Virus record (IMG/VR): IMGVR_UViG_3300045243_000021
Span: 1-64,000 of that record
Length of the DNA stretch: 64,000 nt
Direction: 5' to 3' (one strand)
DNA from: a virus
Every line of letters begins with the position of its first letter. Positions within the stretch are counted from its first letter, which is position 1. Shown in pieces: positions 15,209-43,346 of the stretch. The position numbers and the translations under genes are program-made. Below the pieces are notes generated by a model. The model had not been told where the DNA came from, made no database searches, and worked only from the letters and a program-made list of their open reading frames with translations.

Positions 15209-15304
15209 AGGCCGGAGCCGGACTGATCCCCCGGTGAATCGGCTCAGACCGATGCAGCCTTCTGAGGGGCCTGCTGCGGAGACGCACGGCCCCTTTTTCG
15301 TTTC
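15209..15304 (+). promoter_or_regulatory. structured RNA leader with terminator, copy 1 (before portal)
   Basis: GCCGG/CCGGT hairpin, CTCAGA/TCTGAG hairpin, GGGGCC...GGCCCC plus U-tract. Confidence 0.6.
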
Positions 15305-15316
15305 AGGAGGCATTGC

Positions 15317-17293
15317 ATGTCAAGCCTTAACGGACACGCCCCCTGGGGGCATCCTGACCCAATCGCTCTCAACCGTCTGCAAGCCGCCGTCGAGAATCTC
15401 TCCACCTCTCTGCCTCGCGACCTCATCCGCGGATTCCAAAATATCGATCCGCGCCGCAACCTGGACGATGAGTGCGGCTATCCGCCGTCCAGTACGCTCA
15501 ACGCCCAGCTCTATCGCGACCTCTACGACCGCGAACCATTAGCTACGCGCACGGTGCAGCTGCTACCCGAAGAGGCATGGCAGGTTCAGCCGAACGTGAC
15601 GGAGGACGACTCAGCAGAGAATGTCACGCCATTCGAGGAAGCCTGGGACGCCTTATCGCGGCAACTGGCTGGGCCGGCCGGCAATGGATCGTGGTATCAG
15701 GATGAGGACGGTTCTTCCATTTGGCAGCACCTGAAGCGTGCTGACACGCTCTCGGGTATCGGGCATTACGGCATCCTGTTGTTCGGCATCGACGATGGCA
15801 AGGAACTGTGGGAGCCGGTGGATGGCGTGGTCGAGTTCGTAGCGAATGGTTGGCTGGATTCGCCCATCACGCCTGCGGAAGAGATTTGTTTGCTGACGCC
15901 AACGCCGCAAAAGACGTGGAACGGCAAGCGTCGTGAAGTGGTCGTGAATGGCAAGGTGCAATGGGAGTTTGAGTTCTACGATCACCAGCCGCCGACGATG
16001 AATGACGAAGAGGCGATGGTCTTTAACGGCTGGAAGGAGAATAGCGAACTCGTTACTAACGCCATCCAGCAACGCAAAACCCAGATGCAGACGCCGCAGT
16101 CGCTGGGCATTGTCGGGACTGACCAGCAGTATGACGGCGTGGTGGGTAGCCAAACCACCTATGGCCCGTCTGATATGTTCAAGGACGGTCCGAAGCTGCC
16201 AAAGGTTGCCAAGCGGCGCTTGCTTTTCCTGCGGGCATTCGACGAGAGCCTGGTGCAGGTCGTGCGTTACGAGCGGAACATGCACAACCCGCGCTTCGGT
16301 CAGCCGGTGATGTACCGGGTGACGCTGAACGACCCGCGTGAGCAGCATTCGGGCATCGGTCTGCCGCTGGCCACGGTGTTTGTTCATTGGTCCCGTGTGC
16401 AGCACTTGAACGACGTGGGCTGCGTGGCGGGTGCAAGTGAAATCTTCTCACCGCCGCGCATGCGTTCGCCGCTCAACGACATCCTCAACGGCCGTAAGGT
16501 GCGTGGCTCAGGCGCCGAAGGCTACTATAAATCGTGCTTCACGGCCTACTCGTTCGAGACGAATCCGCAACTGGGCGGCGACGTCCTCATTAACAAGACC
16601 GATCTCTTGAATCAGTGGGAGAACTTCCAGAACGGCTTGCAGCGGGCGATGATGCTCTCGGGTCTGTCGATGAAGAGCCAGGCCCCGACGGTCGTGGACC
16701 CGACGCCGCACGTGGACAAAGCCATCGAGGCCATTTGTATCGTGCTCGGTTGTCCGGTGCGGGTATTCAAGGGGAGCGAGCGTGGCGAGCTAGCGTCGAG
16801 TCAGGACGATTCGAGCTGGAATGACCGGATGAAAGCGCGGCAGAACTACTACATCACGCCACGTATCATCGTGCCGTTTATCGACCGGTTGATAACGCTA
16901 GGCGTACTGCCCGAGCCAAAGGGCTATAGCGTGCGTTGGCCTGACCTGGACAGCAACACGGACAAGGACAAGGCGACGATTCTCCTGACGCGGACGCAGG
17001 CGTATGCGGCGTACGTGCAGGGTGGCATCGAGGCGATGATCCCGAAGAAAGACTACATGACGAAATTCGACGACATGGATGAGGAAGAGGCGGAGGCGGT
17101 TATCATTGACGCCGAAGCCGCCGAAGAGCAGCAGATGCTGGAGGATCAGCAGATGGCTCAGGAGCAAGGCTTCGAGCCCGCGCCGCCGGAAGGGTTCCAG
17201 GCACCAGAGCCGGAGCCGCCAGCCACACCAATCAAGGTGAAGCCGGGCGAGAAGCTGGTACATCCGGCGAGTGTCAAGGCACCGGGGGGGTGA
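15317..17293 (+). CDS. portal protein (DUF1073-like) with internal insertion
   Basis: ECGYP, LY.R..LA...V..LPEEAW, AD.LSGIG.YG.L, PRFGQP.MY, VHWSRVQH, GSERGELASSQD...WN...ARQ; between terminase and MuF. Confidence 0.85.
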   Translation: MSSLNGHAPWGHPDPIALNRLQAAVENLSTSLPRDLIRGFQNIDPRRNLDDECGYPPSSTLNAQLYRDLYDREPLATRTVQLLPEEAWQVQPNVTEDDSAENVTPFEEAWDALSRQLAGPAGNGSWYQDEDGSSIWQHLKRADTLSGIGHYGILLFGIDDGKELWEPVDGVVEFVANGWLDSPITPAEEICLLTPTPQKTWNGKRREVVVNGKVQWEFEFYDHQPPTMNDEEAMVFNGWKENSELVTNAIQQRKTQMQTPQSLGIVGTDQQYDGVVGSQTTYGPSDMFKDGPKLPKVAKRRLLFLRAFDESLVQVVRYERNMHNPRFGQPVMYRVTLNDPREQHSGIGLPLATVFVHWSRVQHLNDVGCVAGASEIFSPPRMRSPLNDILNGRKVRGSGAEGYYKSCFTAYSFETNPQLGGDVLINKTDLLNQWENFQNGLQRAMMLSGLSMKSQAPTVVDPTPHVDKAIEAICIVLGCPVRVFKGSERGELASSQDDSSWNDRMKARQNYYITPRIIVPFIDRLITLGVLPEPKGYSVRWPDLDSNTDKDKATILLTRTQAYAAYVQGGIEAMIPKKDYMTKFDDMDEEEAEAVIIDAEAAEEQQMLEDQQMAQEQGFEPAPPEGFQAPEPEPPATPIKVKPGEKLVHPASVKAPGG

Positions 17294-17294
17294 A

Positions 17295-17756
17295 GTGGAA
17301 AGTTTTAAGTTTCGTAGTCCAGAAAATGACGACTGGCAAATTGGCTTTGTTGTCAAGGACGTTCTTGGCGCCATCGACTACCTGTATGCCAAAGAAGTCT
17401 ATGGCCCATTTACACTAGTGATGGGTCGATACTGGATTGCGTTCTTGTTGGCGATTTACGTCGCGCCTAACGTCACTGCCGAACGGCTTGTGCAGGCGGC
17501 TAAACGCGGTGGTCTTAGGCCGCTCAAAGATCGGCTTGAATTCATCGAAATGATTAGGGCGGTACTTATCAATCCTTCAAAGAGCGACGACGGGTATGCC
17601 GTTGAGTTGGTCAAGAACGGCAAGGCATTTACGTTCACGGTAGATAAGCCGGTAATGCTCACCAAGGAGCAGTTGCAGGACAGCCTTCGCGACCTTACGG
17701 CGTTGCCGGTAGACATCGCTAGCGAGAATCTACGGCGGCAGTTTGCGGGGGAGTAA
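17295..17756 (+). CDS. hypothetical protein
   Basis: Co-oriented ORF between portal and MuF. Confidence 0.45.
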   Translation: MESFKFRSPENDDWQIGFVVKDVLGAIDYLYAKEVYGPFTLVMGRYWIAFLLAIYVAPNVTAERLVQAAKRGGLRPLKDRLEFIEMIRAVLINPSKSDDGYAVELVKNGKAFTFTVDKPVMLTKEQLQDSLRDLTALPVDIASENLRRQFAGE

Positions 17757-17759
17757 TCC

Positions 17760-19994
17760 GTGCCATTCGTCTCGACCGCTCAAGAACGTGCCTGCTTTGC
17801 TGGTGCCATGCCAGGAGTGGACTGCCACGAATGGGCGCGTAAGAGCAAAGGCAAGAAGCTCCCCAGGCACGTTCGCAACGCCGCATCCGTCTGGCGGCGC
17901 AAGCGGAAGCTGATGCGCAACGGCTCACCCAACGCACAAGGCAACGGCTTCGGTAATAGTCTCAAGAAGCGTGTGACTACCAACCGTCGTCGCTCTACTG
18001 ATCCCACACAGTCCATCACGCTCCGTGGCGCAATGGCTGCCGAACTCAAGCGGCGGTTTGCACGGCTCAAGCTGGACCTGTACGACCTGATCGTTCGGGA
18101 TGATGCGTTCGGGCCGGCGCACGTGGCGTTGAATGCGTTCTGTCCGACGGGTGAAGGGGGTGGACAGGATAACTCGTGTTCGTCGCATGAAGGCGGCGCG
18201 CCTGCTGGTGATGCGGTTCATGGATACGTGCAAGGCTTTGCTGATGGCAAAGGAACCGCAGAAGACTTTCGGCAGGCGAACCGCGAACTCAAGGAAGATG
18301 GTAGTAAGTATCGGTTGGTTCCGACTGCTGACGGCAAGGCTCAGCCGATGCACGTTCGCGATATTGTCGATCAGTACGGCCCACGGTGGTCGGTAGCCGT
18401 TAATCCGTTGACTGGCAAGCTTGACGCTGGTGATGCTGACTGGTTCAGGGAGGCGGCCAAGTTTTCTGGCGACAAAGAAACACGTTCTTACCTACATGCC
18501 TTCAATGACCCAAAGCAAATAGGAACCGAGGCGGACGCCAAGCAAGCGAACAAAGAACTAGCCGAATCTGGTAACGCGCATCGCATCCAGTGGAGTAAGG
18601 AACAAGGTTTGTGGGTCGCAACGAAAGCCACGCACAACGAACGCTTCGCCTACGCCTCATCGCCGCAAAAACTAGCTGCCTTCAAACGCTGGCTCAAAGG
18701 CCAGATAGACCTGCGCATCGGCACCGAGTATGACGCCATCTGGGAACGCTACGTCGAGAGCGGGTTCCGCAAGGGCATCCTGAACGCCTTCCGGTCGATG
18801 AATCCGGGTCGGCCGGTTAACGAGTTTTATTTGGGCGGCAAAGAGCAATTCTTGCGGATGATGGAAGGCCGCCAGGTCACGGTGCAGAAGCTGAAGGTGC
18901 TGGCGGCGCGGACGTGGGCCGACATTGAAGGCGTGACGCAGCAGATGGGCGCGAAGATGACGCGCATCCTGGCTGACGGTTTTGTGCAAGAGCTACCCAA
19001 GGAGAAGATAGCCCAGCGCATGAGTGTGGAGCTGGGCATTGCTCTCAAGAAGTCGTTAGGCATCGTCCATAACGAGTTCGTGCATGCTCATGCGGAAGGG
19101 CAACTGGATGCGGTGGAAGAACTGGGCGGTACGCACGTGACGGCAGACGTGGCGTGGGAAACGGCTGGCGAGAACGTGTGTCCGTATTGTGAGGGCATGG
19201 AAGGAGTCGTGTTCACGGTGAAGGAAGCACGGGGGCGCATTCCAGCGCACATTGGTTGCAAATGTGGATGGCATGTGGTGCCGATGGCCATGAACGCTTT
19301 CTGTTCGACTGGTCCCGGTGGTGGCATCGACCCAACGTGCGGTCATGGCTCTGGAGTCTCGAAAAAGCTGCCATCACCCAAAGTTCAAGCGCATCCCAAT
19401 CATGGCGCTGGCGACAAATCGAAGTTTGTTGGCCAAATCGTCGGCAAGGCTGAGCACGAGCATGCCGCTAACGTCGAGAAGCACGTCGCCAAGGTATTGG
19501 GTGGGCGATGGGAAGAGGACAATCAATTCTTTGACGTGCAAGCGGGTAAGAATTACGTGGAAGTGAAGTCCATGCTGAAGGGCCAGAAGACAGCTATCTC
19601 TGTTCATGCCGACGCTTTGATTCGTAAGGTTGACGGTATTCGCCAGACGGGCGGCCAATTCCATACGGTTGTATTCGATGAGCGCGGCACGTACCAGGGT
19701 GGATCGCACAAAGAAAACTTTTCCGGCCACCAAATCTACTACAAGCGTGGCAGCGGCCGATATAGCTTAGGGCAAATGCACCCGGTAGCGGATGAAGCCG
19801 AACTTAAAAAGTTGATTACCATGGACCCGAAAGCGCTGCCAGAAAAAGCACGCGGGTCGTTGCCATCTGGGAAACTTGTGACGTTGCTGCGCCAATCGGC
19901 TGAGCGAGCGCATGAATCAAGGTTGGCCAAGGATCGCAATCGGAAGGAACGTCTGAAGGCCGAAGGCAAATCTGCTTATGAGAGGCAGACGTAA
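17760..19994 (+). CDS. MuF/SPP1 gp7-like minor head protein with inserted domain and C-terminal nuclease-like extension
   Basis: DPTQS..LR, E..HAHAEGQLD, W.TAGE.VCPYC...G...IPAH.GCKCGW; C-terminal FDV...YVEVKS. Confidence 0.85.
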   Translation: MPFVSTAQERACFAGAMPGVDCHEWARKSKGKKLPRHVRNAASVWRRKRKLMRNGSPNAQGNGFGNSLKKRVTTNRRRSTDPTQSITLRGAMAAELKRRFARLKLDLYDLIVRDDAFGPAHVALNAFCPTGEGGGQDNSCSSHEGGAPAGDAVHGYVQGFADGKGTAEDFRQANRELKEDGSKYRLVPTADGKAQPMHVRDIVDQYGPRWSVAVNPLTGKLDAGDADWFREAAKFSGDKETRSYLHAFNDPKQIGTEADAKQANKELAESGNAHRIQWSKEQGLWVATKATHNERFAYASSPQKLAAFKRWLKGQIDLRIGTEYDAIWERYVESGFRKGILNAFRSMNPGRPVNEFYLGGKEQFLRMMEGRQVTVQKLKVLAARTWADIEGVTQQMGAKMTRILADGFVQELPKEKIAQRMSVELGIALKKSLGIVHNEFVHAHAEGQLDAVEELGGTHVTADVAWETAGENVCPYCEGMEGVVFTVKEARGRIPAHIGCKCGWHVVPMAMNAFCSTGPGGGIDPTCGHGSGVSKKLPSPKVQAHPNHGAGDKSKFVGQIVGKAEHEHAANVEKHVAKVLGGRWEEDNQFFDVQAGKNYVEVKSMLKGQKTAISVHADALIRKVDGIRQTGGQFHTVVFDERGTYQGGSHKENFSGHQIYYKRGSGRYSLGQMHPVADEAELKKLITMDPKALPEKARGSLPSGKLVTLLRQSAERAHESRLAKDRNRKERLKAEGKSAYERQT

Positions 19995-20282
19995 ATGGCA
20001 TTGCACGTGACTTTTTCAGGGGCTCGTGATGGCGATGACGGGCCGTTTCAATTGGCATCGGCATCCGGTTGGCAAGCGGCCATGAAGACAGCTAGCGGCG
20101 CGGGCAAAGCGATTGATGCGCTGTTCGCTGATGGTGCGGTCACCAATAGCACAAAGCTAGCTAAGGATTTGGATAAGGCTCTTGCCATGAAACTGCCCAA
20201 GGACGTGCATGATACCCTTGCCCAACTAAGGGAATTAGTTGGTAGCGGCGACGAGCAAGAGACAGTTAGCGTCATTGACTGA
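19995..20282 (+). CDS. candidate immunity protein for the MuF C-terminal domain
   Basis: TAAATG coupling directly after the MuF extension; 95 aa. Confidence 0.4.
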   Translation: MALHVTFSGARDGDDGPFQLASASGWQAAMKTASGAGKAIDALFADGAVTNSTKLAKDLDKALAMKLPKDVHDTLAQLRELVGSGDEQETVSVID

Positions 20283-20289
20283 GGCTGGC

Positions 20290-20508
20290 ATGCCTAAATA
20301 CTCAACCGCCAACGACGACCGCGGGCTCGTGTTCGACGCTGCCGGTAACGAACTGAAGTACGTCTACGAATGCGACACGGAGACGGGCTGGGTGAAGGAA
20401 TGCGTCATGGAGGACGGCGTGGCAAAGATCGTGGGCGGCGAGTTCGTATACCGTCAGCGGCGGTATCCGGCTCCGCTGCGGTTCATCCGGATTGTGGAGG
20501 GTGATTAG
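20290..20508 (+). CDS. hypothetical protein
   Basis: GAGG RBS; V.ECDTETGWV motif. Confidence 0.55.
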   Translation: MPKYSTANDDRGLVFDAAGNELKYVYECDTETGWVKECVMEDGVAKIVGGEFVYRQRRYPAPLRFIRIVEGD

Positions 20509-20509
20509 C

Positions 20510-20737
20510 GTGGCGCATGAAGTGGAGCGACTGAATGGCAAATACGTAATTGCCTACAAGGAATGGCTCGAAGCTCATCATGCGGCAGAGAATGATGGTC
20601 GTACTGGGTGTCTTGCGTTCATGTTTGTTCTGCTGGTGGTAGCTGCGACTTATGGCGTGATTAGATTTGAGGGTTTCTACAAGGCCAAGGTTGCCGATAT
20701 TGAGCAACGTCTGGAGGCTCTGGAGGCAACGAAGTGA
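20510..20737 (+). CDS. small membrane protein
   Basis: One hydrophobic helix; GGAGG RBS. Confidence 0.45.
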   Translation: MAHEVERLNGKYVIAYKEWLEAHHAAENDGRTGCLAFMFVLLVVAATYGVIRFEGFYKAKVADIEQRLEALEATK

Positions 20738-20958
20738 ACCTGACGCCGACGGAGCGACGTTTACTTGCCCTGCTATCGGATGGCTGCCCGCATCGGCGGG
20801 AGGAACTCTTGGCTTGCCTCTACGATGACTACTCGCCAAGCGTGCTAACCTTGAATGTCCATCTCTGTAATCTCAGGAAGAAACTTGCCGTCGATGAGCG
20901 TGTCGTAGTCAGAAAGACGGCTCATTATCTACTCGAAACCGCCGGGTCAGCGTCTTAA
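20734..20958 (+). CDS. winged-helix (OmpR C-terminal-like) regulator
   Basis: LTPTERRLLALL...REELL.....TLNVHLCNLRKKL. Confidence 0.8.
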   Translation: MNLTPTERRLLALLSDGCPHRREELLACLYDDYSPSVLTLNVHLCNLRKKLAVDERVVVRKTAHYLLETAGSAS

Positions 20959-28350: not shown

Positions 28351-29159
28351 TGCTAGACATCACCCGCAAGTCGCTTCAGATAATTTACTGCGTCGTTACG
28401 CTCTCCGCGTTGCTCTTGCACCAGCCCACGAAGGACGCGGCCAAGGTCGAGGGCCTGGAACTCACGGCCACGCTCAAAGGCGCACCCGTGAAGAGCGGCG
28501 ATGCCTTGCCCTCGTGCAAGCAACTCATCATCGTTGCCAAAACGACGGATGAGAAGGCAGAGGTCAGGTGGCTTGTGTTTGGTGCCACCAGCGACCCGGA
28601 CTTCGAGGTATCGGGGCCGACGCTCGTTGTCGTCACGCCGCCGGACGGCGGGCGTATCGACGTCTTCGCGTTGGCGAGCAATGCGGGGAAGCTCACCGAG
28701 TTCGCGACATTCTCAGTTAACGGGAAGGGTTCACCTCCCGTGCCACCGGTCAATCCTCCGGTGAATCCTCCCGTTAACCCCCCTGTCACGCCACCGGTGA
28801 CACCGCCCGTGGGGCCGGTGACGGTCACGCAACCGCTGCACGTCATGATCGTGGACGACCCGAGCACGCGCACGCCCGAGACGGCGGCCATCATCGCCTC
28901 GCAGACGTTCCGGGCGGCTCTCGCTGGTGCTCAGTTCCGCTTGTACGCGGCCAACGATCCAAGCTTGGCGAACGGTGGCATCAGCGTGGTGAGTGGCCAG
29001 CTGACGGCCAAGACTAAGGCCGGCGCGGTTGTGGGACAAGCGACGATACCGGCGCTCATCGCCGTGGACGCGAAGGGCGTGCTGCACTTGTGTAAGTCGT
29101 TGCCGCGAACGGAAGCGGAAGCCATCCAAATGCTCAAGCCGCTGCTGGGGGGGAAGTGA
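28350..29159 (+). CDS. exported protein with PPVN/PPVT linker, partner of the C1 peptidase
   Basis: N-terminal hydrophobic segment, Pro-rich repeat at about 28735-28815, GTGA overlap with the peptidase. Confidence 0.6.
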   Translation: MLDITRKSLQIIYCVVTLSALLLHQPTKDAAKVEGLELTATLKGAPVKSGDALPSCKQLIIVAKTTDEKAEVRWLVFGATSDPDFEVSGPTLVVVTPPDGGRIDVFALASNAGKLTEFATFSVNGKGSPPVPPVNPPVNPPVNPPVTPPVTPPVGPVTVTQPLHVMIVDDPSTRTPETAAIIASQTFRAALAGAQFRLYAANDPSLANGGISVVSGQLTAKTKAGAVVGQATIPALIAVDAKGVLHLCKSLPRTEAEAIQMLKPLLGGK

Positions 29160-31138
29160 AGATGCCTGACATCAAAGTCTTTAACGACGCGAATGGTACG
29201 CGGCTTATCGAGGCCAAGGGCCAACCACCGCGGGCCATGGGCTGCTGGGCACCCAAGCCGCATTGCGCCTTGCCGGGCATCGAACAACTCGCCGCTGGCA
29301 TCCTGCCGCAAAGCCAGTGGCAAGAACTAACTTTGGGGCAATTTGCCTGCGAAGTTCAAGACCAAGGTCAGACCAGCAGTTGCTTCCCGGCTGGAACGCA
29401 TATCCGAATGGAGGACGGCTCCGAACGCAAGATCGAAGACGTTCGGTTGCTGGATAAGGTTCTGACGGCTGAAGGGAACATCGGGACCGTCACGCGGCTG
29501 ATGGTTCGCCATGAGCCAAACGCCTTGCTGCGTCTTTGCCTTTGGGGACATCGGCATCTACGCATGACGGCAGAGCATCCAGTTCTGACGAAGCGTGGTT
29601 ACGTTCCTGCCTGCGAACTGAGAGTAAGCAAAGCCAGATGGCACGGTGGCGAAGAATGTGATTGGGTGGCTATGCCGCGATATGCGCCACAGCTAAGGAC
29701 AAGCATTCACGTTGACGATCACGTTGATACGTATCGGACGTTTATTCGTCGCGAGCGCGTGAGCAAAATTCATAGCGTATCGTCGCGTGGAACGGTGCTA
29801 ATCACTAAATATCCATTGCCAGATTTCTTCACGCTCACGCCGGGTGTTGGCAGAATCTTTGGCCTGTTCCTGGCTGAAGGAAGCACAACGTCAACGTATG
29901 TCATGTGGACATTCAACATCAAAGAGAAAGAAACGCTTGCCGCCGAATTGATCGACTTACTGAAAGCCGAGTTCGGCATCGAAGGAAGACTTCGGACGCG
30001 GCCAAACAATACCTGCAACGTACAGGTTCACGGCACCGGATGGGCAAGATTGTTTGAGGCATTGTTTAAGACCGGTGCCGGACGCAAGCGTATTCCGTCA
30101 GACATTGCTTCTGGACCAAAGGATTTCTTGGAAGCGCTTTTCACCGGATGGCTTGATGGTGATGGACATGCCAGGCGCAATGGTATTGGTGGCGTTAGCA
30201 TCTCCCGCGATCTCGCTCTAGGGATGTTCGACATCGCCCACGCGCTGGGCAAGCTTCCGGCAATCAGTCGCAGGGAAGGCAAGCCGAACAAAGGCGCGCT
30301 GGTTCGTCAAGCAAGTTGGGAAGTTCATTGCCAGAATGATCCGCCCGAAAAGGTGTTCCGTTCTCAACAGGACGACAAGCACGTCTGGCGGCGAATGGCT
30401 GGTATCGAAATGGAGGAGTTTTCTGGGCCGGTTTACAACATGGAAGTCGAAGGCGACAACAGCTACGTCGCGGAAGGAATCGGCGTCCATAACTGCACCG
30501 GCTTCGGGACGCGGACGCTCATGCGGCGATTCCGGTTGCTCTCCGGGCAAACCATGCCACCCACGGATTTTAGCCCGTGGGGGATTTATGAGATGGTGAA
30601 CCATGGAGCCGATGGCGGGGCCGATCCGGAAGAGGTCATGACGGCCTTGATCAAACGTGGGTGCCCGCTGATGGGTAGTCTCACGACTGGCGGCGTGCCT
30701 GACAAGCTGTTCTTGGCTCCGTCCATCGACGGCCAAAAAGCGGTATGGGACACGGCTGCCCGGTACAAGCTGGCGCAAGCCTATTCGTTCCGCACGTGGG
30801 ACGGACTTTGCACGGCCTTGACGCTCGGCAAGAACTGCGGACTTGGCATCCCCGTGCGAAGTGACTTCATGCACGGGAAATTAGACGACGAAGGTGTGGT
30901 GCCGTGGACGGGTCAGATGCTCGGTTGGCACTGGGTTGAGGTACATTCATTAGAAAAGTCCAAGAAATACGGCTGGAAAGCACGCATGCAAAATCAATGG
31001 GGCATGTGGGGCGACAAGGGCTTCGCTTACATCGTAGAACAGCACCTTGATCCGACAATGAGTCTTGGATTCGCGCCCGAGGCGCAAGTGGACGACCCGA
31101 ACGTGGACACGAGCGATTTCCCGGCGGTCACGGGGTAG
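29156..31138 (+). CDS. papain-like C1 cysteine peptidase interrupted by an intein
   Basis: QDQGQTSS|C(TGFG), GWHWV, QNQWG.WGDKGF catalytic motifs. Confidence 0.85.
   Translation: MKMPDIKVFNDANGTRLIEAKGQPPRAMGCWAPKPHCALPGIEQLAAGILPQSQWQELTLGQFACEVQDQGQTSSCFPAGTHIRMEDGSERKIEDVRLLDKVLTAEGNIGTVTRLMVRHEPNALLRLCLWGHRHLRMTAEHPVLTKRGYVPACELRVSKARWHGGEECDWVAMPRYAPQLRTSIHVDDHVDTYRTFIRRERVSKIHSVSSRGTVLITKYPLPDFFTLTPGVGRIFGLFLAEGSTTSTYVMWTFNIKEKETLAAELIDLLKAEFGIEGRLRTRPNNTCNVQVHGTGWARLFEALFKTGAGRKRIPSDIASGPKDFLEALFTGWLDGDGHARRNGIGGVSISRDLALGMFDIAHALGKLPAISRREGKPNKGALVRQASWEVHCQNDPPEKVFRSQQDDKHVWRRMAGIEMEEFSGPVYNMEVEGDNSYVAEGIGVHNCTGFGTRTLMRRFRLLSGQTMPPTDFSPWGIYEMVNHGADGGADPEEVMTALIKRGCPLMGSLTTGGVPDKLFLAPSIDGQKAVWDTAARYKLAQAYSFRTWDGLCTALTLGKNCGLGIPVRSDFMHGKLDDEGVVPWTGQMLGWHWVEVHSLEKSKKYGWKARMQNQWGMWGDKGFAYIVEQHLDPTMSLGFAPEAQVDDPNVDTSDFPAVTG
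29381..30493 (+). mobile_element. intein with LAGLIDADG endonuclease (371 aa)
   Basis: CFPAG start, TAEHP block B, GLFLAEGS and GWLDGDG, VYNMEV...VHN|C end. Confidence 0.92.
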
Positions 31139-36023: not shown

Positions 36024-36024
36024 C

Positions 36025-38238
36025 ATGCCGCAGATCTTGCACGTGAGCGGTGGAATCCTGACCGTGGATGGTGGCTCCGTGCCCACCATCAACACGCCGT
36101 GGGATTCCATCCCCAATTTCGGAGCCAATCCCACCAACAAGAGCATGCGGGATGGGGTATGGTCCGATCCAAGCATGTGGTCGCATGGGGTGCCCAAGGC
36201 AGGCGATGTGGTTTCCATGGGCCACATCGTTCTCTACGACGTGGTGAGCAACCAACTACTGAACACGGTTGCCGTCCAGCCGGGTGGATTGATGAGGTTC
36301 CGGCCAGACAAGTTCACTTTCCTGCATCTGCAAACTTGGTTGGTGATGCAAGGCGGGGCTGTGGAGCTTGGCAGTGTCATTAGTCCAATCAAGTACGACC
36401 CAACGTCAACCCACTTCCTGGGAGCTGAGATCGTTATTGCTGACGTGGCTCCCAACGATACTAACCAGTGGGGGACTGGACTCGTCTGCTTGGGCAAGTT
36501 CACTGCTTGCGGAATGCAAAAGCCATCCTTTCTGCGCCTGGCCGCCGATCCGCTCAAAGGTCAAACCACGACGGTGCTTCAACTCGCTCAGCCTGCCACC
36601 GGCTGGAACTTTGGCGACGTGGTGTTGATACCCGACACGCGGCAACTGGCCGGCAGCGAGCGGTGGGGAGCCTACGTCAGTCAGGACGAGATCGCCCTCA
36701 TCACTGTCATCTCCGCCGACGAGATGAGCTTGACCGTGCAGAAGATTACGAGCGTCGTTCCTGACCCGGGCCAAGGACCGGACGGCAGCATGGGCAGCCA
36801 CCCGGTGCTCTCGCCCTCGCTGGCTTACGACCACAAGGGGGCGCTGAACCCGGACGGCTCACGATTCTGCTATTGCCACGTCGGCAATCTGACCCGCTCG
36901 GCGATCATCCGTTCGGCCAGCCACCTTGGCACGCGCGGGCATGCGTGCTTCACCTATCGGGCCGAAGTGGACGTGTCATACATCGGCTTCCACGGATTGG
37001 GCCGAACGACGAACGCCGCGATCGGCACCGCCAATCTGGCCGGACGGCATCCGGTCTACCTGCGGCACCTGATGGGACCAGCGGTTCCGCGCGCGAGCGG
37101 CCGTCAGTACGAGTTCAAGGGCTGCGCGATCTTTGATAACGACGTGCCCAAATCAACGCGCCGCTGGGCCGTGGCGCTGAACGATTCGTGCGACGGTTTG
37201 CTTCAGGGCAGCGTGCTCTACAACTGGGCCGGCGCCGGCGTGGTGACTGAGGATTATGCCTGCGTTCGCAACCTATTCGACGGCAACTTCATCTGTGGCA
37301 TTCACGGCGATCACTCCGGGCGCGACAACTCGTTTGGTTCTCGTGGTCTAGACGGCACCGGCATCTGGATGAGCAACGTACGCAACGAGGTCACGAACAA
37401 CGTCGCGGCCAACTGCGCCCTGACGATCCAAGAGCAAGTTTCCGGGACCGGATTCAAATACTTCATATCGCCGGACAACTCGCAAGCTGCCGTCAGCATC
37501 TCGGCCCATCCAGGTGCTGACACGTCGATTCCTGCTCAGTGCGTTGTCGTCAACATGAAGGTTGATGGTCTGGCTCACAACGAGGGCAACGAGGCTTACG
37601 GTTGCGGTGGTGGCATCACGGCTTGGCAGATCGGCACGGACGGCTATGCGATATTTCCCAACGTGCCAATCTCGACGATCAAGAACTTCGTGGCGTGGCA
37701 CTGCTGGCAACAAGGGTTTTTCGGCTACCCGACCAACAACTTCTGCCTTGACGGGTTCACGTATCGCGGCGACATGAGGTTCTTTACCGATCAAGATCAG
37801 GGTGCCTACGCTTTGGAGTGGGGTGATTACCGCTGTGCCAACACAATGATAACCAATGCCGACATTCAGGGTGCGCGGCGTGGGTTCTCGAACACGACCG
37901 ACACGCCGGGCACGCTGACGATCCAGGACAGCTTTTTTGAGTGTGGGGTGTCGGCTCTCGACCTGACCAACCAGACTTCGCCGGGCGCGCGGGCAACTAT
38001 CCGCGACCGTGCCATCACGATCCGGAACGTTCGCTATGGCCCACGGACGCCGACGACCATCTACCGACCGTGGGTGGCCACCGGTGAGACGCCGACACCA
38101 GTAGATACCTGCCAGGTGATTGACCACAACGGCGTGAGCGGCGACAACTTCAGCGTCTACTTATTGAATGCTCCGTCGCCGTACGTGGCACCGGTGGACG
38201 CGGTGACGAGAGCGGGGATTGTGGGGCTGGTGAAATGA
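36025..38238 (+). CDS. G8-domain protein with parallel beta-helix (candidate depolymerase/adhesin)
   Basis: G.WSDP..WS.G.VP.AGD.V, H.GA, VGNLTRS..IRS, GRHPVY.RH and beta-helix repeats. Confidence 0.75.
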   Translation: MPQILHVSGGILTVDGGSVPTINTPWDSIPNFGANPTNKSMRDGVWSDPSMWSHGVPKAGDVVSMGHIVLYDVVSNQLLNTVAVQPGGLMRFRPDKFTFLHLQTWLVMQGGAVELGSVISPIKYDPTSTHFLGAEIVIADVAPNDTNQWGTGLVCLGKFTACGMQKPSFLRLAADPLKGQTTTVLQLAQPATGWNFGDVVLIPDTRQLAGSERWGAYVSQDEIALITVISADEMSLTVQKITSVVPDPGQGPDGSMGSHPVLSPSLAYDHKGALNPDGSRFCYCHVGNLTRSAIIRSASHLGTRGHACFTYRAEVDVSYIGFHGLGRTTNAAIGTANLAGRHPVYLRHLMGPAVPRASGRQYEFKGCAIFDNDVPKSTRRWAVALNDSCDGLLQGSVLYNWAGAGVVTEDYACVRNLFDGNFICGIHGDHSGRDNSFGSRGLDGTGIWMSNVRNEVTNNVAANCALTIQEQVSGTGFKYFISPDNSQAAVSISAHPGADTSIPAQCVVVNMKVDGLAHNEGNEAYGCGGGITAWQIGTDGYAIFPNVPISTIKNFVAWHCWQQGFFGYPTNNFCLDGFTYRGDMRFFTDQDQGAYALEWGDYRCANTMITNADIQGARRGFSNTTDTPGTLTIQDSFFECGVSALDLTNQTSPGARATIRDRAITIRNVRYGPRTPTTIYRPWVATGETPTPVDTCQVIDHNGVSGDNFSVYLLNAPSPYVAPVDAVTRAGIVGLVK

Positions 38239-38323
38239 GGCAGTGTTGTTACTGTCCAAAAGAAGGATACCTGTTAGTCAAGCTTGCGGCCGAAAAGATA
38301 AATAAGGGCGGGAGGGTTGAGAC

Positions 38324-38584
38324 GTGAGTGAATTTCAGGGCAAGGCTTGGCGGGGTGGCGAAGAGATTCCAGTTGATGCACCAACGCCAGACTATCCGAC
38401 GTTAGCGGACATGATGGGAGACGAGCCAACGATGCTCATGTTCGGCGAGGTGGTGCATGGTTACGATCCTGATGAGCTTGAGGAACGGTTACGGCGTTTC
38501 GTCAAACTCGGTGGGCAGTTCACCTACAGCGAAACGTGCCAGAAGCGAGTCAGCGTGATTGGACCAATTGTGGTTAGCTACTAG
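38324..38584 (+). CDS. hypothetical protein
   Basis: GGGAGG RBS. Confidence 0.45.
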   Translation: MSEFQGKAWRGGEEIPVDAPTPDYPTLADMMGDEPTMLMFGEVVHGYDPDELEERLRRFVKLGGQFTYSETCQKRVSVIGPIVVSY

Positions 38585-38624
38585 GGAGTAACCTTTTACG
38601 GGACCGGCGGCACAAGTCGCTGGG

Positions 38625-38730
38625 TACAATCAATTGGCTGAAACCGGGCTTGCAATCCGGTAGAGGCGTCAACTCTCGCTTAGCCCGTTGACGGGGCCTT
38701 GCGACCTAGGGTCGTTCGGTCCCGTTTTTT
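38625..38730 (+). promoter_or_regulatory. TACAAT -10 plus structured RNA leader with terminator, copy 2
   Basis: GGCTGAA-ACCGG/CCGGT hairpin-AGAGG-CGTCAAC/GTTGACG hairpin-GGGGCC...GGTCCC-TTTTTT. Confidence 0.65.
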
Positions 38731-38744
38731 ATTTGGGCTAAGCC

Positions 38745-40793
38745 GTGGCGAATGTCTCTAGTCAAGTGTTCTCGACGGACACCTGTTGGACGTGGTTCAA
38801 CGGTCGCCGCGCCGTTTGGGACGCTGCCAATCAGAAGTGCTACGTCGCCGGCACCCGCAATGACGGCGTGTTGGACGTGCGCTCCTTCTGGAATCGCAGC
38901 ACCTACGACTATTACGACCTGGGCTTGCCCAACGGCTCTTCGGTGTTCGAGATCGAGGACCACGACAACCCCGGCCTGTGCTTGCTAAACAATGGCGAAC
39001 TGTTTGCGGGCTTCTCCAAGCATGCCGTAACCGACGAATCCTACGTGGCACGCGCCAACGGAGCCGGTCAGGTCAGGAATTGGAACGCACGGGTCAAGGT
39101 CAGTGCCGGGGCCAAGAATTCCTACAGCGAGATTATCCCGCTCGGCGACAGCAACAACACGCTGGTACGTTTCTATCGCGACGACGACGACGCCTCCAAG
39201 CGCAAGTTCCGCACGTCCACGGATCACGGCGACACGTGGAGCAGCGCCAACACGCTCGTCAACGTGCCGGCCGGCGGTGCGCGTCCCTACCCGCAGTATG
39301 AAAAAAATGGCAGCCTGCGCGTCGATTTTTTCTTCAGCGAGGACGGGCCGGGCGAGACGCTGACTCACTGCTCGCTCTACGCGGGTTACTTGCTGTTCAA
39401 CTCCGACGCCACAAGCTGGACGTGGCACCAGTTGGATGGGTCCGTTGTGGCTGGACCGACCACCGTCGATCAGTTCACGCTGGTCTACAACGGGGCCACC
39501 AATTTCGGCTGGTGCTGGGATTTGAAGATCATCAATGGCCAGCCGCACTACGCATTCGTGCATTTTGAAACCTCTTTCACCAAGCACGTCCTGCACTGGG
39601 CGCGGTGGAACGGCTCTTCCATAGACACTGAGGTCGTGGCCAACGTCGGCGACGGCACGGCGGATTACATCGGCGACGGCTCCAGCAAGCCATACGCGGC
39701 CGGCATCGCGCTCGACCCAAACAACGAGGGCATCGTCTACCCGTGCATCAAGTACGGGGCCAATGATTTCCGCCTGGAGAACTGGACGCACAGCGGCTCC
39801 TACGGCAGCGGATCGTGGGCCAAATCTGCTGACGTGAGCGGCAATACCGGCACCATCAACGCTCGCCCGTTCTCGCTCGACTGCTCAGGCACGACGCGCG
39901 TTTTCTGGTGGGAAGGCACGTACGCAACCTACACGAACTTTTCCACGCGGGGGCGGTGCTCGCCTGCGTTCGTCAAGAAGAACGCCAAGCCAACCACGCC
40001 GGTCTACACGTCCGCGTACGCACCCAGCGGCATCAAGGCGTGGTTCCTGATCACTGAGGGCAACGGGGCACCGGGCGACTTGACTGGCAACGGCTACGGC
40101 GGGGCATTGGTCGGTGCGCCGACGTGGAACACGGGTGGCGGCTCCGACTTCGGTAAGTTCCTTAACGGCTTCTCTACTAGCAACTACGTCAGCTTGAACA
40201 CGTTGGCGGCGGCCATTGCCTTCACGTCCTACGATTTCTGGACGCTGCTGCTGTTCAAGACGACCAGCGCCAGCACGACAAGCCAATGGTCGGCAGGATT
40301 CGGGCGTAACGCTTCCGCCAACCCCATCATTACGGTCGGCAACCACAACAACGGCAGCACGCATCAGGTAGAGATGCTGGACCGCGACGACGTGCCAAAC
40401 AGCGACGACATCATCACAACCGGCACTGGGGCTAACGGCGGGTTTCAGAACGACGGGGCCTATCACGTCATATTCACGCGGCGCACGGCCGCTAACGCCT
40501 TCGCCATGTTTTTCGATGGCACGTCGCGTGGTACGGGGACGGTATCGCTGGGGACGACGACTCTTGACCGCGGGGCCATTGGTTGCCTGGTCCGCACGTC
40601 GGCTGGGTCGGCCTTCGCTGGCGAAGTACATGCAATGGCAATCGGCTGGGGGGCAACGGTGCAGGACCGTTGTTGGATGTGCGAGGACTGGCTTTTCGGG
40701 CAGTTCAGCGGGTCGTTTGATCCGAATGCGGGGGCGACTGGACTTAGCATGGTGCCGGAACGACGAAGAAACCGAACACTTGTGAGGATGTAG
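38745..40793 (+). CDS. BNR-4/sialidase-like propeller plus LamG lectin domain protein (receptor-binding candidate)
   Basis: WTWFN..RA, DHDNP.L, STDHGDTWS Asp-box, RPY; C-terminal NDG.YHV..R...MFFDG...IG. Confidence 0.75.
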   Translation: MANVSSQVFSTDTCWTWFNGRRAVWDAANQKCYVAGTRNDGVLDVRSFWNRSTYDYYDLGLPNGSSVFEIEDHDNPGLCLLNNGELFAGFSKHAVTDESYVARANGAGQVRNWNARVKVSAGAKNSYSEIIPLGDSNNTLVRFYRDDDDASKRKFRTSTDHGDTWSSANTLVNVPAGGARPYPQYEKNGSLRVDFFFSEDGPGETLTHCSLYAGYLLFNSDATSWTWHQLDGSVVAGPTTVDQFTLVYNGATNFGWCWDLKIINGQPHYAFVHFETSFTKHVLHWARWNGSSIDTEVVANVGDGTADYIGDGSSKPYAAGIALDPNNEGIVYPCIKYGANDFRLENWTHSGSYGSGSWAKSADVSGNTGTINARPFSLDCSGTTRVFWWEGTYATYTNFSTRGRCSPAFVKKNAKPTTPVYTSAYAPSGIKAWFLITEGNGAPGDLTGNGYGGALVGAPTWNTGGGSDFGKFLNGFSTSNYVSLNTLAAAIAFTSYDFWTLLLFKTTSASTTSQWSAGFGRNASANPIITVGNHNNGSTHQVEMLDRDDVPNSDDIITTGTGANGGFQNDGAYHVIFTRRTAANAFAMFFDGTSRGTGTVSLGTTTLDRGAIGCLVRTSAGSAFAGEVHAMAIGWGATVQDRCWMCEDWLFGQFSGSFDPNAGATGLSMVPERRRNRTLVRM

Positions 40794-40796
40794 AGC

Positions 40797-41285
40797 ATGG
40801 GACGCATTTACTCCATACCGCTGACTAACTCGGCAGGCGTAGCTGGTACTGGGGCAACTCTCATAGAGGATGCCTTTGAGATAACCGCCGCCAGCGGCAA
40901 GCCATTCTGGTTGCACGAAGTCGTTATCGGTCAGACTTCTGACTTCGGCGACGCCCAGGCCGAAGGGCTTCCATTCATCGTCAAGAAAGGCATCGGCCAT
41001 ACTGCCGGTTCTGGCGGTCAGTCCGTGACGCCAGCCAAGCACCTAACCAATGATGCGGCGGCAGGAGCGACGGCCAAAATCTGCAACACGACGCAGGCCG
41101 TAGTTGGCGCTGGGTCACTCACGACGATACGCGGCGATGGATGGAACGTGCAAGGCGGCGAACAATACCTGCCAACACCTGAGACGCGCATCCTGTTTTT
41201 GCCTGCCGAAGCGTGCGTGATCTCGCTGGCGGCTCCTGCGGATGCCCTGACACTCATTGGCACCGCAGTCATCGAAGAACTCTAA
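40797..41285 (+). CDS. virion structural protein (jelly-roll-like)
   Basis: WNV.GG..YLPTPE.RI; position in the fibre module. Confidence 0.55.
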   Translation: MGRIYSIPLTNSAGVAGTGATLIEDAFEITAASGKPFWLHEVVIGQTSDFGDAQAEGLPFIVKKGIGHTAGSGGQSVTPAKHLTNDAAAGATAKICNTTQAVVGAGSLTTIRGDGWNVQGGEQYLPTPETRILFLPAEACVISLAAPADALTLIGTAVIEEL

Positions 41286-41303
41286 GAATGGAGGGCAGCT
41301 AGC

Positions 41304-41726
41304 GTGGCGAATCTTTACAAAATCGGCACCACTATGCGAAATGCCGCCTGCAACGGCATTGTGCAGGCTATTGACGGCGGCACTCCGCCCGGACGTCTAG
41401 AGCACCGTACCGGCGCACAGCCAACGAACGTCAGCGATGCCAGTTCAGGCACGTTGCTGGGAACGAATACCTTCAGCAACCCTGCGTTTGGTAGTGCGTC
41501 AGTTGGCGTCTGCACGGCGAATGCCATCAGCAGCGACACGAGCGCTGACAACAGTGGAACGGCCGGCTACTTCCGTGTTTACACTGGGGCCGGTGGTGAC
41601 ACGGCGGCATTGTGCCAAGGGAATAGCGGTACATCAGGCACTGACATGATCTTTGATAACAATGTAATTGTTGCTGGCGGGACCATAGCCATAACTTCCT
41701 TCACGGTCACTATGCCTTCAAACTAA
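41304..41726 (+). CDS. minor tail/collar fibre-associated protein
   Basis: RNA...I.......L...TGAQP......GTLL......PAFG.AS.G......ISSD..A..SGTAGYFR. Confidence 0.65.
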   Translation: MANLYKIGTTMRNAACNGIVQAIDGGTPPGRLEHRTGAQPTNVSDASSGTLLGTNTFSNPAFGSASVGVCTANAISSDTSADNSGTAGYFRVYTGAGGDTAALCQGNSGTSGTDMIFDNNVIVAGGTIAITSFTVTMPSN

Positions 41727-41736
41727 GGAGCCCCTA

Positions 41737-42159
41737 ATGGCCAAAATGTACGTAGGCGACAGTATGCACGTAGGCGGCAGTTTTGCCCCGCCACTTACTG
41801 ACGACGCTCTTGAACGCTACCGTGGGCTTGCGGCTGGCCTGCCAAAGAACTCGCGCATACGCAGCATCATGGACGACATGCTTGCGTGTTGTGACAAGTG
41901 GTGGGATTTACCCGAATCCAATGGCACTGGTAAGCCGCACGCTACCGGACTTGGCACGGTTGTGACGCTCAGTGCTGACAATGCCAAGGCTCTCGACTCA
42001 CATATTCCGTGGGATGATGAGCTGGAGACGTGGAAGCGTGTTCTTGACGGCATTGATGCTGAGACGAACAAGGAATTGCGTGACGCTGCCCATCACTTGT
42101 TGTGGCACGTCTGTGAACTATCGTTAGGTCGTGAACCGCTGACGGCTGACAAGCTGTAG
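41737..42159 (+). CDS. hypothetical protein
   Basis: AAGGAG RBS. Confidence 0.55.
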   Translation: MAKMYVGDSMHVGGSFAPPLTDDALERYRGLAAGLPKNSRIRSIMDDMLACCDKWWDLPESNGTGKPHATGLGTVVTLSADNAKALDSHIPWDDELETWKRVLDGIDAETNKELRDAAHHLLWHVCELSLGREPLTADKL

Positions 42160-42167
42160 GGCAAGCA

Positions 42168-43208
42168 ATGCCTGGCAAAGGCGTATTCCGCAGACTATTG
42201 AGGCCGTACTGGCCACCACGTCGCCGATGGCGCAAAGGCCTAACCGCTCACCAAGTGGTGTCGGCGGCTGGCGCTTGCAGCATCGGTGCCGCTACCGCGC
42301 TAGCACAAGCTACGTTTACGCCGCCGGTGTACCACGGCTCGGCAGCGGTTAACGTTGGGGCGGCGACCGCCAGCGCCCAGGCTACCTTCACGACGCCAAC
42401 CTATCATGGCTTGGCATCCGTGGCTGTGGGGCATGCCACCGCTGCTGCCAATGCGACGTTCACCGTACCGACCTATCATGGTTCCGCTGCCGTCACTATC
42501 GGGCCAGCGACCGCGGCGGCGACTGCTCTGGCATTCACGGGTTACGCAGGCCATGCAGCTCCTACTATCGGACCAGCAACGGCACTGGCTCATGCCACGT
42601 TTGTGGCACCAGTCTTTACCGGCTCGGCGGCCGTCACGATTGGGCATGCCACTGGTTCCGCTACGGCCATCTTTACCGCCCACGTCTATTTGGGTGTTGG
42701 TAGAGCAACAGTTGGACCTGCGACGGCAGCGGCTACGGCAACCTTTGTTGCCAGCACGGCGTCCATACCCCGTTACCTGAACCACAGCCCCGCTGAAATC
42801 ACCGCCAAGATGATGGCGGACATGGGCATCACGGAGGCATTCGACGGCGACAACTGGCCAACGCTCGTGAACTCGGAGCCGAACCTGCCGGACAACTGCA
42901 TCACAGTCTACGACACGACGCCGCGGGTGGACGCCCGATTCATGACGAACGGTGCCTGGGGTCGGCACCACGGCATACAGATTCGCGTACGCGGCACGAC
43001 GTCGCCGGTGGCATGGACAAGGCTTAACGCCATCTATGAGCAATTGGACCGGGACGCCTACACGGAGACGGTAGCTCTGGACAGCAACACGTACGAGGTG
43101 CATGCGTTCCATGGTTCGGTGCCGACGTTCATGGGGAAGGACGTACCGGGCGGGAAGCGGACGTTCTGGGTGCTCAACGGCACGATAACGATACGACCAT
43201 TAACTTAG
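42168..43208 (+). CDS. tail terminator-like protein with N-terminal 24-aa beta repeats
   Basis: About 7 repeats YHGSAAV.IG.ATA.A.ATF; C-terminal HSPA....EP..PD..ITVYDT...GIQIRVRG. Confidence 0.65.
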   Translation: MPGKGVFRRLLRPYWPPRRRWRKGLTAHQVVSAAGACSIGAATALAQATFTPPVYHGSAAVNVGAATASAQATFTTPTYHGLASVAVGHATAAANATFTVPTYHGSAAVTIGPATAAATALAFTGYAGHAAPTIGPATALAHATFVAPVFTGSAAVTIGHATGSATAIFTAHVYLGVGRATVGPATAAATATFVASTASIPRYLNHSPAEITAKMMADMGITEAFDGDNWPTLVNSEPNLPDNCITVYDTTPRVDARFMTNGAWGRHHGIQIRVRGTTSPVAWTRLNAIYEQLDRDAYTETVALDSNTYEVHAFHGSVPTFMGKDVPGGKRTFWVLNGTITIRPLT

Positions 43209-43243
43209 GAGAGGCAATGGGGCCGGCGTCTTGAGTCGTCGGT

Positions 43244-43346
43244 TACAATTAGACGGGCTGAAGGCGGAGTAGCTACCGCCGAGAGGCCATAACCTTCGCT
43301 GTCCGTTATGGGGCCTGCGACGAGAGTCGTCGGCCCCATTTTTTTC
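43244..43346 (+). promoter_or_regulatory. TACAAT -10 plus structured RNA leader with terminator, copy 3
   Basis: GGCTGAA-GGCGG/CCGCC hairpin-GAGAGG-CCATAAC/GTTATGG hairpin-GGGGCC...GGCCCC-ATTTTTTT. Confidence 0.65.

Follow-up and report, generated by a model that had tools for sequence, protein, structure and literature searches.

An uncatalogued structured RNA before the virion genes of dozens of unrelated uncultured phages, with a probable role in late-gene reading and translation

The virus record IMGVR_UViG_3300045243_000021 has a length of 72,002 base pairs (bp), of which bases 1-64000 are called the window here. The phage is from soil, and the gene content of the window is that of a temperate tailed phage, with genes for an exonuclease, RecT, a small terminase subunit, a portal protein, a head morphogenesis protein and an integrase. 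Three copies of a structured RNA of about 125-135 nucleotides (nt) are found before virion genes on the + strand, each with an end like that of an intrinsic terminator. From 5' to 3' the element is formed by a segment a (GGGGCCG...), a hairpin P0, a variable spacer, the motif GGCUGAA, a hairpin P1, the stretch GAGAAGCC, a hairpin P2 and a two-tier hairpin with a U tract. The start codon of the next gene lies 10-25 nt past the end of the element, with a median of 14 nt after the model end. The element is uncatalogued, is carried by dozens of unrelated uncultured phages and probably controls the reading and translation of their late genes.

An earlier note on this DNA had pointed to three sites of shared architecture, and re-reading of the letters finds all of the described features at their positions. 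GGCCGGA is present at 15210-15216 and GGCTGAA at 38636-38642 and 43256-43262. The 5-bp stem with a loop of 8-9 nt (P1) exists in the three copies, and the second stem (P2) pairs with different letters in each of them (CTCAGA/TCTGAG, CGTCAAC/GTTGACG, CCATAAC/GTTATGG), sharing the first G's of the terminator as claimed. The two-tier hairpin GGGGCC...GG(C/T)CCC is followed by a T run in all three. The 5' limit of the sites, however, has to be moved, and the conserved part begins about 35 nt earlier (15176, 38598 and 43217) with the extra hairpin P0. Besides P0, the note had missed that the P0 5' arm is a rival partner for the 3' arm of the terminator, that the P1 loop is self-complementary and that the P2 loop can pair with the start region. 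It had labelled the downstream genes as portal, fibre and tail tube: the portal gene is confirmed (PHROG 146, Pfam Phage_portal_3), while the 'fibre' is a 682-amino acid protein with BNR_4 repeats and the 'tail tube' a 180-amino acid protein with no family match.

A degenerate pattern of the shared architecture matches three times in the window, compared with 0.00 matches expected from 100 dinucleotide shuffles. Two covariance models were built, R1 from 11 sequences and R2 from 62 sequences, and both recover the three copies (Table 1). With R1 the next match has 12 bits. When R2 scans the full 72,002 bases with its filters switched off, the best match besides the three copies reaches 8.7 bits (E-value 0.82), so the copy number in the 72-kb record is exactly three. 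Single-sequence folding at the coordinates of the earlier note is only partly significant (z of -1.40, -2.99 and -3.83); the case rests on the comparison with relatives.

These relatives were sought by DNA pattern, because no close protein relatives of the portal were found and similar DNA is absent from the phage collection. A BLASTN search in distant mode with 38300-46200 against the phage collection gives no match. With the portal protein as bait, no match is found in viral contigs, and genome contigs give only matches of 27-28% in two Poribacteria metagenome-assembled genomes (MAGs), which were not used. Two first patterns yielded 29 and 34 stretches in viral contigs, of which 2 and 8 are real on reading. 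A sharper pattern yielded 33 viral, 19 genome and 72 metagenome stretches, and R1 confirms 23/24 viral loci (the other 9 contigs were already in the set), 3/19 genome loci and 57/72 metagenome loci. The three genome loci come from MAGs with the labels Dehalococcoidia, Gemmatimonadota and Thermoguttaceae; as all three contigs are short, they give no firm indication of the phage host. Model scans of 150 other genomes in each of the phyla of two MAG carriers give one weak and unconvincing match each (33.2 and 36.7 bits). Among sequencing runs, the stretch 38300-43700 is listed in two soil-metagenome DNA runs and in no RNA run.

The final alignment, A7, contains 62 distinct elements from viral and metagenome contigs with duplicates removed. 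Membership is set by model hits, as a filter on the T run lost real members (e.g. L072). An alignment of 11 sequences by MAFFT and RNAalifold was dropped: it placed P1 and P2 out of register and gave only the a:b' helix described below and a GGCU:AGCC pairing, and a model-based alignment was used instead. The copy number per genome is 1-3 among the carriers, with two copies in G001 (50 kb, with terminal repeats), G002 and G012 and one in G010 and G003.

The covariation that the earlier note had assumed is strong in all stems of A7. P0 is paired in 97.8% and all of its six pairs are changed on both sides; the values are 92.8% and 5/5 pairs for P1, 88.5% and 5/5 for P2, 95.6% and 4/6 for the outer stem of the terminator, and 93.0% and 4/4 for its inner stem. 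Changes on both sides occur in 24/30 pairs overall. Shuffled controls match the observed values in 0/500 cases, and controls with slid arms are 34-46% paired. The fold is read on the + strand RNA because G-U pairs are present in every stem. Unpaired letters are also conserved, namely GGCUGAA in 54/62 members, GAGAAGCC or a close variant, and CUUCGCUGCC(C/U) in the P2 loop. The terminator loops are often GNRA-like (GAAA in 13, GAGA in 8), and at least 5 T are found within the 8 nt after the stem in 59/62.

Two further proposals of the earlier note change in the light of the family. It had suggested a pseudoknot between the 5' end and the P2 loop. The complementarities exist in the three copies, but as a family feature the pseudoknot is reduced to three near-invariant GGC/GCC pairs with no clear covariation, and the proposed fourth pair is formed in 29/62. 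A rival partner for the 5' GGC is the GCC of GAGAAGCC, which is 97.8% paired and also invariant. As judged from the letters, GGC may pair with either GCC, both being near-invariant. The note had also placed a TACAAT box before copies 2 and 3. This box is part of the RNA itself: it falls in the spacer from P0 to GGCUGAA, which is unconserved among the relatives. TACAAT as the promoter of the RNA is rejected, since P0 lies upstream of it and covaries as RNA.

Segment a (GGGGCCGGCG in copy 3), which lies before P0 and in its 5' arm, resembles the 5' arm of the terminator (b) and complements the 3' arm (b'). The a:b' helix was first proposed by RNAalifold on an early alignment and is 90.7% paired on A7. 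At alignment columns 6/185 it forms 43 G-C and 9 A-U pairs, where the terminator's own pair is G-C in 38, G-U in 7, A-U in 3 and unpaired in 12. In copy 2, GGGACCG (38600-38606) and CGGTCCC (38717-38723) are perfectly complementary, where the terminator's own arm uses G-U. The duplex energy of a:b' is -23.56 kcal/mol for own partners and -19.70 kcal/mol for non-cognate ones, compared with -24.71 and -21.57 kcal/mol for b:b', with 0/2000 permutations as good in either case; the cognate specificity of a:b' is as large as that of the terminator itself. Permutation of rows within aligned columns gives 87.7 +/- 0.6% pairing for a:b', and 92.1% is observed. The 5' GGG is kept in 59-60/60 sequences though it has no partner in P0. 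In copy 3 the 3' arm of P0, GAGTCGTCGG, recurs in the 3' arm of the terminator. By constrained folding, the fold with two hairpins (P0 and terminator) and the extended fold have mean energies of -58.6 and -57.1 kcal/mol, and 34/59 sequences prefer two hairpins, so that the two folds are near-isoenergetic in the model; each of the three window copies, when folded without constraints, has its energy minimum in the extended fold.

The loop of P1 is self-complementary. A palindrome of at least 4 nt is present in 58/62 members (mean 23.2 and maximum 35 in 500 shuffles), and one of at least 6 nt in 35/62 (mean 4.1, maximum 11). Fifteen different palindromes occur, with GATC, TTGCAA and TAGCTA in the window copies. 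No such excess is seen in the loops of P0, P2 and the terminator, where 7, 4 and 5 palindromes compare with 9.7, 17.1 and 3.8 expected. The palindrome usually adjoins the 3' arm and leaves 1-2 spare nucleotides on the 5' side. All four exceptions read (N)UCGCU(N).

The loop of P2 complements the start region of the gene downstream. Against its own 36 nt past the U tract, the mean duplex energy is -13.09 kcal/mol (n=57), whereas coding windows give -9.50, shuffles -8.65 and the start regions of other elements -11.13 (Wilcoxon p of 4e-8, 9e-10 and 2e-4; 0/2000 permutations as good). Duplexes of -10 kcal/mol or lower are predicted in 44/59 and duplexes of at least 7 pairs in 50/59. The search ran from the U tract to 12 nt past the start, and within this range, which partly sets the location, the median target spans -12 to -2 from the start. 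Loop variants are matched by target variants. In copy 1, AGGC and TGCAT of the start region complement GCCT and ATGCA of the P2 loop; in the RNA, GCCU and AUGCA would pair with AGGC and UGCAU, the AUG included, in a 10-bp duplex of -12.0 kcal/mol with its target at -11 to +2 from the start. In copy 2, GGGCTAAGC is a perfect 9-nt complement of GCTTAGCCC in the loop (38678-38686), giving 9 bp and -18.3 kcal/mol; as RNA, GCUUAGCCC is matched with GGGCUAAGC, which ends 1 nt before GTG. The duplex of copy 3 is the weakest of the three (-9.4 kcal/mol). Among the relatives, loop GCUGUCCUG goes with target CAGGACAGC in L127, and loop GCUGACCC with target GGGUCAGC in L112.

As the earlier note had proposed for the window, the terminator-ended element stands immediately before virion genes, and this also holds for the 62 relatives. 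Of 56 downstream proteins of relatives that were scanned, 22 match a PHROG, and 22/22 belong to head, packaging, connector or tail families: 6 portal, 4 major head, 4 head protease, 2 major tail and 2 small terminase subunit proteins, and one each of large terminase subunit, scaffold, head-tail adaptor and head decoration. The gap from the U tract to the start codon is too short to hold a promoter, so that the element has to be the leader of the late message. An ungapped profile of the family reveals no conserved promoter upstream of P0. A sigma-70-like site is found upstream in 7/55 loci, with its -10 element ending 7-23 nt before GGGG, compared with 0-2 in each of eight control windows. The 10-12 nt before GGGG are A/C-rich and nearly free of G in the A7 members (0% G at -1, 7-8% at -2 to -4). 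An upstream open reading frame (ORF) often ends 5-40 nt before the element. The stops of the longest upstream ORFs scatter from -78 to +57 relative to GGGG, and ribosome-coupled attenuation by a leader peptide is rejected as the family mechanism. In copy 3 a mini-ORF, ATG GGG CCG GCG TCT TGA (43217-43234), overlaps segment a and is preceded by AGGAGAGG; ATG directly before GGGG is also seen in a few relatives (e.g. L115, L150, L165) and is absent in most.

For possible trans factors, the naive ORF sets of four carriers (72, 50, 51 and 44 kb) were compared all against all by BLASTP. An integrase is common to the four and a small terminase subunit to three; no other shared protein is detected by BLASTP, to which distant likeness is invisible. 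The earlier note had named 20734-20958 and 61511-61852 as candidate regulators, and neither has a BLASTP counterpart in the three other carriers. The former is a 74-amino acid ORF in the block of head genes with a match to Trans_reg_C (winged helix of the OmpR/PhoB type; 29.5 bits against a cut-off of 26.2). The Q-type antiterminator families PF06530 and PF03589 have matches in 0/5 carrier records, while the controls in E. coli are matched; Q proteins are diverse, and an unrecognised family may be present.

With regard to known RNAs, the novelty that the earlier note had assumed holds against Rfam 15, none of whose families reaches its gathering threshold anywhere in the 64-kb window. A scan of the copy 1 region by E-value gives chance-level matches, the best with an E-value of 0.7. 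In four relatives, the best Rfam match is RF02353 (BjrC68, a small RNA of Bradyrhizobiaceae) with 28.0 and 19.9 bits, compared with a gathering score of 39. BjrC68 is similar in its GGGGCC...GGCCCC terminator at the end, which carries this sub-threshold match. In contrast, the first hairpin of its model is unmatched, with non-canonical pairs, and the window has no BjrC68 match. Word searches of open-access full texts, a scope outside which subscription journals lie, found no paper on such an element.

Table 1. Positions of the three elements, their parts and the genes that follow them in the window.
Feature	Position	Strand	Remarks
Copy 1, whole element	15176..15303	+	most divergent copy; R1 72.4, R2 58.2 bits
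Copy 1, segment a (GGGGCCGCTG) and hairpin P0 (GCCGCTG / TGGCGGC)	15178..15201	+	from sequence and family P0 covariation
Copy 1, GGCCGGA and hairpin P1 (GCCGG / CCGGT)	15210..15235	+	loop palindrome GATC 15225-15228
Copy 1, hairpin P2 (CTCAGA / TCTGAG), loop CCGATGCAGCCT	15243..15266	+	
Copy 1, terminator hairpin GGGGCC...GGCCCC and TTTTT	15266..15298	+	
Copy 1, start region GGAGGCATTGCATG	15306..15319	+	includes ATG at 15317
Copy 1, downstream gene	start 15317	+	portal; 14 nt past element; PHROG 146, Pfam Phage_portal_3
Copy 2, whole element	38598..38733	+	R1 86.5, R2 74.6 bits
Copy 2, segment a (GGGACCGGCG) and hairpin P0 (CCGGCG / CGCTGG)	38600..38623	+	
Copy 2, TACAAT in spacer between P0 and GGCTGAA	38625..38630	+	
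Copy 2, GGCTGAA and hairpin P1 (ACCGG / CCGGT)	38636..38661	+	loop palindrome TTGCAA 38650-38655
Copy 2, hairpin P2 (CGTCAAC / GTTGACG), loop TCTCGCTTAGCCC	38667..38693	+	
Copy 2, terminator hairpin GGGGCC..GCGACC/GGTCGT..GGTCCC and T run	38693..38730	+	
Copy 2, start region GGGCTAAGC	38735..38743	+	ends 1 nt before GTG
Copy 2, downstream gene	start 38745 (GTG)	+	682-amino acid BNR_4-repeat protein; 12 nt past element; Pfam BNR_4
Copy 3, whole element	43217..43347	+	R1 102.8, R2 96.2 bits
Copy 3, segment a (GGGGCCGGCG) and hairpin P0 (CCGGCG / CGTCGG)	43219..43242	+	
Copy 3, TACAAT in spacer	43244..43249	+	
Copy 3, GGCTGAA and hairpin P1 (GGCGG / CCGCC)	43256..43280	+	loop palindrome TAGCTA 43270-43275
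Copy 3, hairpin P2 (CCATAAC / GTTATGG), loop CTTCGCTGTCC	43287..43311	+	
Copy 3, terminator hairpin GGGGCC...GGCCCC and TTTTTTT	43310..43345	+	
Copy 3, downstream gene	start 43364 (ATG)	+	180-amino acid protein with hydrophobic N-terminus; 17 nt past element

The gene after copy 2 follows a gene for a beta-helix protein, and that after copy 3 follows a weak match to a tail terminator. Elsewhere in the window, a 660-amino acid ORF (29156-31138) contains an intein-like insertion with weak Hint/intein-splicing and LAGLIDADG_3 matches, and an 883-amino acid C-methyltransferase (51780-54431; Methyltransf_13/14/23) is split, also in an intein-like way, by LAGLIDADG_3 at residues 409-483. The latter is part of a sugar-modification cluster that occupies the right end of the phage (51780-61220) and consists of C-methyltransferase, HNH endonuclease, nucleotide-sugar epimerase, methyltransferases, glycosyltransferase and aminotransferase, which could be an auxiliary module or one for surface or DNA modification. 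Proteins with T5orf172/MUG113 (GIY-YIG-like) domains are encoded at 5222-6208, near the replication genes, and at 62032-62601, beside the integrase.

Two variants were observed among the relatives. In the second copy of G012 (L221:1501-1628), GGCAUAA replaces GGCUGAA and the P1 loop has no palindrome; its 5' GAGGCC is matched by GGCCUC in the 3' arm of the terminator, and a promoter-like site, TTGACG-17-TAATCT, lies about 25 nt upstream. The locus L167:46-183 keeps P0, GGCUGAA, P1 with a TAGCTA loop and AAGAAGCC, and its P2 loop differs. It leads directly into AGGAGG and a GTG start, with a full copy 600 nt downstream on the same contig.

One model can bring together what is seen in the sequences: helices that covary, a terminator 3' arm with two partners, a P2 loop complementary to its own start region, a palindromic P1 loop, the features of a terminator and a place just before late genes. 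With moderate confidence we infer that the element is a bistable cis-acting leader, which would stop transcription and mask the start site until a signal refolds the RNA. In this model the element would be transcribed from the + strand at the head of a message for virion genes. In the default fold, P0 and the terminator hairpin would form together with a short P2 and a P1 that is lengthened by GGC:GCC; most polymerases would then stop and a short RNA would be released. In the messages that leak through, the free P2 loop would pair with the Shine-Dalgarno and start region, and ribosome entry would be blocked. The second fold, of about equal predicted stability, would pair a with b' and the 3' arm of P0 (a') with the 5' arm of the terminator. 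P2 would gain two G-C pairs, the freed GGC could fill the P2 loop, and the start region would be released, making this fold the putative 'on' state. As trigger, a host component, or the RNA concentration acting through dimerisation of P1 loops, appears likelier than a phage protein. In the bistable leader every conserved complementarity becomes one link in a chain of exclusive pairings.

A bolder form of the trigger, which we consider rather doubtful, is a late-gene gate made of RNA only. Terminated copies would pair with nascent ones via the locus-specific palindrome of P1 and flip the fold with no phage protein involved. If this were true, read-through and release of the start codon would rise together past an RNA threshold, and the element would be a self-timed, concentration-sensing riboregulator common to otherwise unrelated temperate phages.

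Several points weigh against a bistable leader. The shuffle statistics overstate the significance, because A7 consists of related members and was itself fitted to the main helices. The a':b pairing is the weakest link, being 85.8% paired with -7.62 kcal/mol for own and -6.67 kcal/mol for non-cognate partners. The a:b' helix would itself adjoin the U tract, and the second fold may therefore terminate equally, in which case there would be no antiterminator. The likeness between P0 and the terminator could stem from duplication or from a common binding partner. A terminator and an anti-start loop are also counter-intuitive before capsid, portal and tail genes of high output. L167:46-183 has P0, P1 and a P2-like hairpin but no terminator, and a structurally conserved phage factor may exist beyond the reach of BLASTP.

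The same observations admit other readings. The terminated RNA of about 125 nt could be the product itself, a stable small RNA with its 5' GGGG and 3' CCCC paired, dimeric through the P1 loop and acting in trans as antisense on the late start region, like c4 RNA of P1/P7 or CI RNA of P4. The cognate-specific end-to-end pairing of a with b', the strong terminator, the P2 loop complementary to the adjacent start region, the sigma-70-like sites just upstream in some loci (7/55 against 0-2 per control window) and the palindromes that differ between copies of one genome (GATC, TTGCAA, TAGCTA) would all agree with it. We nevertheless regard a trans-acting product as unlikely: with no promoter room after the U tract the late message carries the element, which makes action in cis simpler, and no promoter is conserved across the family. 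The central domain GGCUGAA-P1-GAGAAGCC-P2 could bind host RNA polymerase and make it terminator-resistant without a phage protein, as put RNA does, so that properly started late transcripts pass the terminator of the element and later ones. Such a put-like role is improbable, as a constitutive antiterminator before its own terminator would account neither for the conservation of that terminator nor for the a/b' competition or the anti-start loop; moreover, put acts on early and not on late operons, and the likeness to putL/putR is one of description. In its favour, the domain has two adjacent hairpins in about 60 nt with conserved unpaired purines, 1-3 copies exist per genome, and the integrase is the sole protein that BLASTP finds in all four compared carriers, with Q families matched in 0/5 records. 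The put RNAs of HK022 are about 70 nt long with two stem-loops, exist in two copies and need no dedicated trans-acting protein (PMC9378689).

The element may also not switch at all. A passive intercistronic module could, as an insulator or incomplete terminator, fix the ratio between upstream and downstream late messages or silence late genes in the prophage, or it could serve as a processing or stability site of the RNase III type on the combined a:b' and a':b helix. The four compared carriers all encode an integrase and hence are temperate, needing silent late genes, and many loci have an upstream ORF that stops 5-40 nt short of the element. At about 17-20 bp and with an internal loop, the extended helix is as large as RNase III substrates are, as known from sites in T7 and lambda. 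Such a module seems quite improbable, since a passive terminator needs no conserved central domain of 60 nt, no palindromic loop and no cognate anti-start loop. Least probable is a small-molecule riboswitch with its aptamer in the junction closed by a':b. An aptamer junction is expected to be tight, but the linker from a' to GGCUGAA has 6-13 nt and a variable sequence; the genes that follow encode virion proteins rather than metabolic or transport functions, and no riboswitch of Rfam is matched, even though conserved unpaired nucleotides surround two covarying helices and the 5' arm of the terminator can be captured by an upstream strand.

The element can be compared with several known systems. 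In the lambdoid late unit (PR', 6S RNA leader, tR' and Q), a short leader with an intrinsic terminator also lies directly before late genes, and some loci here have an upstream promoter-like site. Unlike this leader, the element has a conserved covarying structure, is present in 1-3 copies, and comes with no gene of a Q family in five carrier records. Q recognises DNA and a paused polymerase, not folded RNA. Lambda Q is described as reading through an intrinsic terminator, and HK022 put as acting through the zinc-binding domain of the polymerase beta' subunit without a phage protein (PMC9378689). HK022 putL and putR resemble the element as cis-acting RNAs of a phage that form two stem-loops and occur more than once in the genome, and here no protein save the integrase is shared by the carriers in BLASTP. 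They differ in lying behind early promoters, and they possess neither a terminator of their own nor a rival 5' arm, an anti-start loop or a palindromic loop. A parallel to the P2 loop is found in c4 of P1/P7 and CI RNA of P4, which are leader RNAs with an exposed loop complementary to a ribosome-binding region downstream in the same transcript; the P2-loop duplexes are cognate-specific. Those RNAs, however, are processed immunity elements on early or antirepressor operons, whereas the element precedes virion genes, has its own terminator and has no Rfam match at the gathering threshold. Attenuators of the trp type work by a 1:2 / 2:3 / 3:4 logic of segments. Like these and like riboswitch platforms, the element has four segments (a, a', b, b') with exclusive pairings, the terminator last and folds of about equal energy. 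Unlike attenuators, its rival pairing of the 3' arm also lies before the U tract, it has no conserved leader peptide, and a conserved domain of 60 nt separates segments 2 and 3. The P1 loop is similar to the dimerisation initiation site of HIV-1, a kissing-loop hairpin that initiates retroviral dimerisation: both have a loop of 7-9 nt with 1-2 unpaired nucleotides before a 6-nt palindrome, whose letters vary while self-complementarity is kept. Here, in contrast, the loop belongs to a leader of a DNA phage with no RNA packaging, and dimerisation would be a putative property.

The element is far better conserved than any protein of its carriers, with more than 100 bits between phages that by BLASTP have only the integrase in common, and this points to a common and probably host-directed principle of control. 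Within 130 nt it unites four devices: the terminator, the 5' arm that rivals it, the anti-start loop and the self-complementary loop. With 62 distinct sequences and most pairs covarying, the element would add a well-supported family to RNA catalogues, and it would be a marker for the starts of late operons in the phages that carry it.

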